NCBI RefSeq assembly: GCF_041248615.1
Contig: NZ_CP158426.1
Origin: Escherichia coli
GTDB lineage: Bacteria; Pseudomonadota; Gammaproteobacteria; Enterobacterales; Enterobacteriaceae
DNA length: 64,000 nt
Reading direction: 5' to 3' (one strand)
Shown: one piece after another, positions 45,443-45,730 of the stretch
Layout of the letters: each line of letters opens with the position of its first letter
Position numbering within the stretch: position 1 is the first letter of the stretch
The notes under the pieces: model-generated
The model's database searches: none
Seen by the model: only the letters and a program-made list of their open reading frames with translations
Told to the model about the DNA's origin: nothing
Position numbers and translations under genes: made by a program

Positions 45443-45730
45443 TTACTGTCTCTGGCAATCTTTATCGCGATAACGCCTGAAGTACCCTCTCGCTTCCTCA
45501 TCCATACCAAGAGCCGAATGAGTCCGCTTAACTGCCTGTCTTAAATCTCCGAATCTGTCTGTAGTTGCTGGTGGGCGTGCCGCCTTACGGATACATTCAG
45601 AGCGTCTGTTTGCTGCATGTTCACGTTCTTTATCGCCATCTGCCAGCATCATGACTTCTGCCCATCGTGCGGCAGCTCTCCGGTATAGCCCTTTTGACTC
45701 CAGCTCTTCAGCTTTCCTGTCCCTTATCAT
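45443..45730 (-). CDS. PerC-family transcriptional activator homolog
   Basis: 95 aa; N-terminus MIRDRKAEELESKGLYRRAAARWAEVMM resembles the PerC/Pch family pattern (…AE.LE..G.WRRAA.RW.EV…). From memory. Confidence 0.5.
   Translation of the reverse strand: MIRDRKAEELESKGLYRRAAARWAEVMMLADGDKEREHAANRRSECIRKAARPPATTDRFGDLRQAVKRTHSALGMDEEARGYFRRYRDKDCQRQ

Follow-up and report, generated by a model that had tools for sequence, protein, structure and literature searches.

A PerC-family regulator gene ends an EcCIMP1-like phage satellite of Escherichia coli, next to the distal part of a two-part iteron array

Regulators of the PerC family have been described from several kinds of mobile DNA, and their effects on the LEE differ. 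PerC (BfpW), from the EAF plasmid pMAR2 of EPEC, and its EHEC homolog Pch are LEE1 activators, and their genes lie in the plasmid perABC operon or in the late region of a lambdoid prophage. Pch activates LEE1 only via relief of the silencing exerted by H-NS, StpA, Hha and YdgT, and in an in-vitro reconstruction the binding of H-NS to LEE1 promoter DNA was lowered by Pch (PMC4764244). Homologs are also encoded by the phage satellites termed PICIs, and some of these activate LEE (Fillol-Salom et al., PMC6092414), whereas those of EcCIEDL933 and EcCICFT073 had no effect on LEE1 (Porter 2005, in the summary given by Pick et al., PMC11773190). The closest described satellite is EcCIMP1, a PICI from E. 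coli MP1 that is induced, packaged and transferred by the P22-like phage Kapi1 (Pick, Stadel & Raivio 2025, PMC11773190). In Citrobacter rodentium, its PerC homolog, EcCIMP1_025, silences a LEE1-lux reporter that EPEC PerC, assayed in the same way, switches on. The origin of replication of PICIs has been placed immediately 3' of the replicase, where two sets of iterons surround an AT-rich region (Fillol-Salom 2018, PMC6092414).

The stretch of E. coli DNA analysed here, referred to as the window, is 64,000 nucleotides long. The gene under study is its perC-like open reading frame:

45443-45730, minus strand: perC-like coding sequence, WP_000617439.1, 95 aa, the last gene of the satellite (ORF list, Pfam, RefSeq annotation, family alignment)

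The reading frame is intact, begins with ATG and encodes a protein of 11.2 kDa with a pI of 9.9. The Pfam PerC profile PF06069 matches it end to end (residues 1-89 on profile positions 1-89 of 90) with 114.6 bits and an E-value of 2.6e-33, the gathering cutoff being 22.6 bits. An alignment of the window protein with 19 relatives, EPEC PerC and EcCIMP1_025 among them, has 15 invariant columns (M1, D4, K6, A7, L10, E11, G14, Y16, R17, R18, A19, A20, R22, W23 and C46), and the window protein conforms to all of them. These columns include the KAEELESKGLYRRAAARW motif and Cys46, and the N-terminal PerC motif D-K-A-x2-L-E-x2-G-x-Y-R-R-A-A-x-R-W is present. The original prediction, which recognised a PerC homolog here and proposed a profile search as its check, is therefore borne out with a score far over the cutoff, and family membership was established directly: to judge by profile and alignment, the ORF encodes a true PerC-family protein. 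The assignment was already known, as RefSeq names WP_000617439.1 (NZ_LT599825.1, at the coordinates of the ORF) a "PerC family transcriptional regulator". The allele was found in ~325 of 5,426 complete E. coli genomes (~6%), where matches had to span 80% or more of the allele and almost all of them had 95% nucleotide identity or more; the sources include humans, pigs, chickens, an echidna and wastewater.

The gene is carried by an EcCIMP1-like PICI phage satellite of ~19.2 kb, which is integrated in the 3' end of yicC, between dinD and yicC. The main features of the element are the following:

44954-44974, unstranded: left attachment-site core TTATTCAATATTCTGAATCTG, 21 bp, a second copy of the 3' end of yicC (from comparison with K-12, where the site is empty)
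45035-45058, unstranded: repeated ATTATGTACACC / TATGTACAC motif, with a second occurrence beside the integrase end
45990-46430, plus strand: 146-aa ORF divergent from perC (ORF list)
46460-47482, minus strand: Abi_2 (abortive-infection-like) cargo gene (Pfam PF07751, 178 bits)
48771-53429, minus strand: DUF2824 and P22-type ejection proteins (gp7, gp20, gp16-like), cargo between the origin arrays (Pfam, PHROG)
54192-56951, minus strand: primase-helicase with Zn-ribbon, Toprim and DUF927 domains (Pfam, BLASTP)
61385-61603, minus strand: AlpA-family regulator (Pfam PF05930)
62722-63990, minus strand: tyrosine integrase, at the element end adjoining yicC (RefSeq annotation)

The boundaries were established directly by comparison. 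Genomes with an empty site, K-12 among them, match the window only up to 44974 and then run straight into the 3' end of yicC, and the right copy of TTATTCAATATTCTGAATCTG lies ~180-200 bp past the end of the window (64000), beside the integrase. The ATTATGTACACC / TATGTACAC repeats are likely to be integrase arm-type sites. The end of perC is ~470 bp inside the left, dinD-side end of the element, while the integrase and the intact yicC are found at its far end, the latter just past window position 64000. The gene had been predicted to sit on a mobile element, at its edge and just inside a junction with yicC. The mobile location holds, since the element has an integrase, AlpA and primase and its attachment-site core duplicates the 3' end of yicC, and so does the position at the edge; as to the junction, the 21-bp yicC duplicate is indeed at this end, but the end abuts dinD and the intact yicC is at the opposite one. 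At window position 44963, within the left attachment core, one base differs from the RefSeq record (A vs G).

The core genes of the satellite are all on the minus strand, in the order integrase, AlpA, AntA-type antirepressor, DUF4222, Ash, primase, ori, P22-type ejection genes and perC. The element conforms to a PICI in that integrase, AlpA and primase are co-directional, its size falls in the 10-20 kb range, and it lacks a full set of phage structural and lysis genes, the ejection proteins being its only virion-related products. Its primase is 99.5% identical to that of EcCIMP1, with which the element is collinear and which also carries a P22-type ejection module; EcCIMP1 differs in being integrated next to tRNA-Thr beside proA in MP1, rather than at yicC, and in the genes that surround its perC. 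The ejection module consists of DUF2824, gp7, gp20/Inj_translocase and a gp16-like protein with a transglycosylase match, with no capsid, tail or lysis genes, and may relate to the superinfection immunity against a P22-like helper that was reported for EcCIMP1. The operon of ejection genes is headed by a 53-aa ORF (WP_001018524.1, 53446-53760 region, minus strand), identical in EcCIMP1, which may be a small regulator. The Abi_2 gene, placed between the two origin arrays, is absent from EcCIMP1.

The 9-mer GTTGGTTCA or its complement occurs in 12 copies in the 64-kb window, against ~0.5 expected, and all 12 are confined to two clusters, at 45767-45887 and 54056-54166. The first of these, the distal array, starts 36 bp from the ATG of perC, in agreement with the earlier statement that the gene lies next to an iteron cluster. 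The geometry of the arrays, as observed directly, is as follows:

45767-45793, unstranded: three tandem 9-bp iterons, GTTGGTTCA on the plus strand and TGAACCAAC in the direction of perC, at the perC-proximal side of the distal array
45794-45836, unstranded: AT-rich spacer (23% GC) between the two iteron sets
45837-45887, unstranded: three inverted iterons TGAACCAAC at 21-bp spacing
54056-54166, unstranded: proximal origin array, with the same iterons and architecture, inverted relative to 45767-45887

The proximal array starts 26 bp past the stop codon of the primase. Read with transcription, its three tandem iterons come first and are followed by an AT-rich spacer and then the three inverted iterons; it has the position and the build described for PICI origins. 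Past it lies a terminator-like hairpin with a T-run (~53700-53745), followed by a promoter-like stretch, TTGCAA...TATAAT. The arrangement of the two arrays recalls phage P4, to whose alpha protein the N-terminal 360 residues of the primase are 33% identical (BLASTP, E 2e-41). In the P4 record, crr (4291-4590) lies directly 3' of alpha and ori (9086-9809) is 4.7 kb away, both with 'ori type 1 repeats'. As in P4, a single short iteron forms two separated clusters in the window, the first directly behind the 3' end of the primase gene and the second kilobases away, a layout like that of the bipartite P4 origin. The two systems differ in the sequence of the iteron, in the helicase/origin-binding domain, which in the window primase is DUF927, and in that the window arrays are mirror-image copies of each other (tandem iterons, AT-rich spacer, spaced iterons) that are contiguous in some relatives. 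No mention of a second origin array in Gram-negative PICIs was found in the searchable literature, and the origin of the satellite is not discussed by Pick et al. (PMC11773190).

The same layout of two arrays was seen in EcCIMP1, in Salmonella PICIs at yicC, in satellites of Lonsdalea and Chimaeribacter and in capsid-forming PICIs, the last with a different iteron, GCGGGTTAT. Among the sampled loci, the two arrays lie at 12736-12856 and 21276-21396 in L003, at 9333-9443 and 16143-16263 in L009 and at ~9353-9495 and ~17303-17455 in L005-L008; L018 and L019 also have two. In relatives from Klebsiella, Citrobacter, Raoultella, Enterobacter and Pectobacterium, both iteron sets are contiguous and follow the primase over ~270 bp, for instance at 11804-12062 in L024 and 11838-12097 in L026, and likewise in L028 and L029-L032. 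At the end of such contiguous arrays, three iterons in tandem and a conserved -10-like motif come just ahead of the next gene, which is ssb or perC. On comparison of these sequences, the layout of the window looks like a contiguous origin into which 8 kb of cargo has been inserted mid-way. A recent accidental duplication was rejected as the source of the second array: the four array copies found in EcCIMP1 and this element differ in their spacers but not in their iterons, and two arrays are also present in Salmonella, Lonsdalea, Chimaeribacter and the capsid-forming PICIs. A simple inversion between the arrays, which might have put perC last, was also considered; by our reasoning the orientations do not fit it, and since the junction of tandem iterons followed by perC is found in Citrobacter, insertion of cargo between the arrays fits better.

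The 5' end of the 146-aa ORF abuts the spaced-iteron side of the distal array, from which the ORF reads away. This pairing is kept in the satellites of Salmonella, Lonsdalea and Chimaeribacter (loci L009, 15521-15952; L018, 15454-15657; L019, 18145-18543). Pfam and PHROG gave no confident family match for the protein; its N-terminus looks ribbon-helix-helix-like on our own reading, and it may be an origin-associated or copy-control factor. The iterons are unlikely to serve as operators for this ORF alone, as the primase gene is followed by an identical array and, among the sampled satellites, the iteron word varies in step with the primase lineage. A role for the 146-aa protein at the array is nevertheless possible, given that the pairing of ORF and array is conserved.

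Since the 146-aa ORF, on the opposite strand, separates perC from the co-directional genes upstream, perC needs a promoter of its own within 45731-45989. The candidate signals in this interval are:

45736-45741, minus strand: Shine-Dalgarno GAGAGG, 5 nt upstream of the ATG (read from the sequence)
45744-45749, minus strand: perfect TATAAT -10-like hexamer (relaxed scan), a candidate perC promoter only

A standard scan of 44700-46500 for sigma-70 promoters and terminators returned no promoter, and the TATAAT hexamer was the only good -10 element found in the relaxed scan. Its best -35 partner, CCAACA at a spacing of 16 nt, lies within the last tandem iteron, and transcription from it would start in or beside the Shine-Dalgarno sequence of perC. 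The junction itself is conserved: satellites of Citrobacter, Klebsiella, Raoultella and Pseudocitrobacter/Enterobacter have tandem iterons, the motif ACyTTTnnGCTTAynTAT and then the first downstream gene, and in the satellites that Citrobacter freundii carries at yicC, perC comes 57 bp after the distal tandem iterons and this motif, a junction that recurs in the window. From the overlap of the candidate promoter with the iterons we infer that occupancy of the iterons by the primase-helicase would influence the expression of perC. At its other side, transcripts leaving perC would run into the native terminator hairpin of yicC (44772-44799, minus strand), which lies just outside the left attachment copy, downstream of perC and upstream of dinD.

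The perC of EcCIMP1 (EcCIMP1_025, WP_000617443.1) has the same position and orientation, and matches the window without a difference in the iterons upstream of it, its leader and its first 23 codons. The C-terminal two thirds of the two proteins, by contrast, are ~40% identical, so that their overall identity is 54%. A sliding comparison of the two elements delimits the shared part:

45660-45805, unstranded: block 100% identical to EcCIMP1, comprising the tandem iterons, the perC leader and the first ~23 codons

On its flanks the identity falls to ~50%, which places a mosaic breakpoint inside perC; recombination at this junction has therefore exchanged perC alleles. A gene at the extreme end of an element, beside a recombination breakpoint and with no promoter in the standard scan, might be a decaying passenger with no current function. 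This is very improbable: the ORF is intact and full length, has every invariant residue and is preceded by a good Shine-Dalgarno sequence, and its allele is kept at 95% nucleotide identity or above in ~325 complete genomes, whose annotations give it as intact.

The position of perC in other satellites bears on what the gene may do for its carrier. Among 18 loci sampled from other genomes via PerC homologs, 16 have the order primase, ori, SSB and/or ProQ where present, and perC on one strand; the exceptions are two Citrobacter braakii islands with Integrase_1, DUF2913 and KfrA. The start of perC is 173 bp past the primase stop in Lonsdalea, Chimaeribacter and Erwinia, and in capsid-forming PICIs the gene lies between ssb and the capsid operon. 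When satellites were sampled through homologs of the primase, a search blind to PerC, perC was found at most 0.8 kb downstream in five of six clusters, the sixth being a Pectobacterium element that lacks it. The species-level genome scan behind this distribution used strict peptide patterns, gave only 10 loci and was supplemented by exact-protein look-ups; the family occupies the satellite position in Salmonella, Klebsiella, Enterobacter, Citrobacter, Raoultella, Lonsdalea, Erwinia and others. PerC is tied to mobile elements generally, and the sampled chromosomal loci are mostly satellites.

These regularities are what would be expected if PerC were a life-cycle factor of the satellite, a near-core member of the PICI module for replication and late genes, for which regulation of the LEE would be incidental cross-talk. 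It might, for example, clear H-NS off an AT-rich origin or turn on the genes downstream of it. The near absence of the family from phages themselves points the same way, as a tblastn match was obtained in just one of 50,697 phage records. Against it, the presence of PerC varies among EcCIMP1-like elements (Pick et al., PMC11773190), the Pectobacterium satellite lacks it, and PerC genes also occur on 93 plasmids found by tblastn, in a lambdoid prophage and on a non-satellite island. In the window, moreover, perC has moved to the last position of the element, where no gene follows that it could turn on, and no phenotype of a perC deletion in a satellite cycle was found reported in the searchable papers. 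On this evidence the life-cycle role is conceivable, though doubtful.

A broader proposal can be offered tentatively, with the balance of probability still on the other side: PerC would ancestrally be a component of enterobacterial satellites, wired to their origin and read from a promoter that overlaps the iterons. The window would have kept this junction when 8 kb of cargo came to lie between two mirror-image parts of a bipartite, P4-like origin, and the second, inverted array would act in cis in replication or in gene control coupled to it. If this is true, the activation of LEE by PerC and Pch would be cross-talk from a replication or anti-silencing factor of satellites. The position of perC at the origin, along with the two-array origin, gives a testable hypothesis for why satellites carry PerC genes, a question unaddressed in the searchable papers. 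The finding is otherwise ordinary, in that the gene was annotated already, PerC homologs of PICIs are in the literature and experiments have been published on the sister element EcCIMP1. Only two of its aspects go past published descriptions, namely the association of perC with the origin and the two-part, P4-like build of that origin.

The label of activator, which the original prediction gave to the ORF, is unjustified, for its closest tested relative, EcCIMP1_025, represses LEE1. Aside from this protein, the window protein is 52% identical to a 104-aa PerC-family protein from the late region of an EDL933 lambdoid prophage, which is probably a Pch, and 44% identical to EPEC PerC of pMAR2. 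Identities of 54%, 52% and 44% do not separate activator-like from repressor-like relatives, and the sign of regulation is therefore not to be read from them for this allele. PerC and Pch share with the window protein their Pfam family, their size and the KAExLExKGxYRRAAxRW motif, and their genes are likewise on mobile elements, yet these do not lie beside a satellite origin.

An activator of the PerC/Pch type, switching on the LEE (ler/LEE1) or another host regulon in trans, would account for the shared family and for the identity to the pMAR2 and EDL933 prophage proteins. It would also agree with the LEE activation stated for some PICI-encoded homologs (PMC6092414) and with the label 'transcriptional activator' that several of the related PHROG families bear, these matching the N-terminal half of the protein. 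It is nonetheless unlikely, since the homolog with the equivalent type of satellite and position is the LEE1 repressor EcCIMP1_025, and the PICI homologs of CFT073 and EDL933 are cited in PMC11773190 as having no effect. Furthermore, an allele in ~6% of complete E. coli genomes from varied hosts is not confined to attaching-effacing strains. The equivalent satellite position is occupied in ten other genera of several Enterobacterales families, beyond the known attaching-effacing taxa, and regulation of the LEE is thus unlikely to be the ancestral job of the family. An allele this common should not be annotated or read as a virulence activator, the more so as the tested protein nearest to it acts as an anti-virulence repressor.

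The mode of action was approached through the predicted fold. An AlphaFold2 model, computed from the 20-sequence alignment, is all-helical with five helices, a fold class read directly from the model; the pLDDT is ~90 over residues 1-50 and lower beyond, the C-terminal half being of low confidence. In this model the first ~50 residues appear as a TPR-like helical hairpin, with a relation to the ANR family of anti-activators; the likeness to TPR is limited to ~50 residues of a very common helical motif. The predicted fold shows no DNA-binding motif, a PDB sequence search gave no solved relative of the protein, and a BFVD fold search with the model returned nothing at an E-value of 0.001 or below. 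The NCBIfam ANR profile NF033650 aligns with residues 5-52 on positions 7-54 of its 54, at 26.1 bits (E 5.5e-6), which does not reach the curated cutoff of 32 bits. The weak match is spread over the PerC family, 14 of the 20 members matching the profile, and the scores of those compared are:

EcCIMP1_025: 31.1 bits, also below the cutoff
window protein: 26.1 bits
Salmonella homolog: 21.9 bits
EPEC PerC: 18.2 bits
capsid-forming PICI homolog: 12.4 bits

Profile similarity hence suggests that the N-terminal domain of PerC is homologous to ANR, while the window protein is not itself an ANR member. Proteins of the ANR family (AraC negative regulator, e.g. Aar) are, like the window protein, small and helical, and both are thought to work by protein contacts with AraC-type regulators and H-NS. 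The differences are a C-terminal extension of ~40 residues, which in the window protein lies outside the 54-position ANR profile, and the fact that the weak match is a trait of the whole PerC family rather than of this protein alone.

Taken together with the helical fold, the anti-silencing mechanism given for Pch in PMC4764244, which by analogy is the one considered most likely here, favours action through protein-protein contacts or remodelling of the nucleoid. The window protein is most likely not a sequence-specific DNA-binding activator; it would rather be a small protein-protein modulator that remodels H-NS/StpA/Hha silencing complexes, AraC-type regulators or both, with AT-rich, horizontally acquired DNA as its target. 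Since Pch lowers the binding of H-NS in vitro, a direct effect on the DNA-protein complex, including contact of PerC proteins with DNA, is possible as well. The sign of the effect on LEE-type promoters would be set by the allele, with a slight lean towards EcCIMP1_025-like, ANR-like repression in the present case. Transcription of perC would proceed from a weak promoter overlapping the tandem iterons, in the distal half of the two-part origin of the satellite, and its expression would track the occupancy of the iterons by the satellite primase-helicase, i.e. the state of replication or induction. The partner proteins and the sign of regulation, as well as control of the promoter by the primase, are what we infer from these relatives and from the layout of the locus.

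As a whole, the preferred explanation, a true PerC-family protein encoded by the terminal gene of a satellite, acting as a protein-contact modulator and tied in its expression to the origin, is judged somewhat more probable than its negation. The parts differ in strength: the family and the satellite context are near certain, while the mechanism, a small helical modulator of the nucleoid or of AraC-type regulators, is a plausible proposal to which we would give somewhat less than an even chance.

One of the sampled loci, L006 (1267-3690 and 16272-16964), and similarly L007, displays a capsid-forming PICI with ssb and perC that is apparently placed inside the large-terminase gene of a resident prophage. 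A single predicted ORF there joins TerL domains to the integrase of the satellite, and the remaining part of TerL follows after the satellite.
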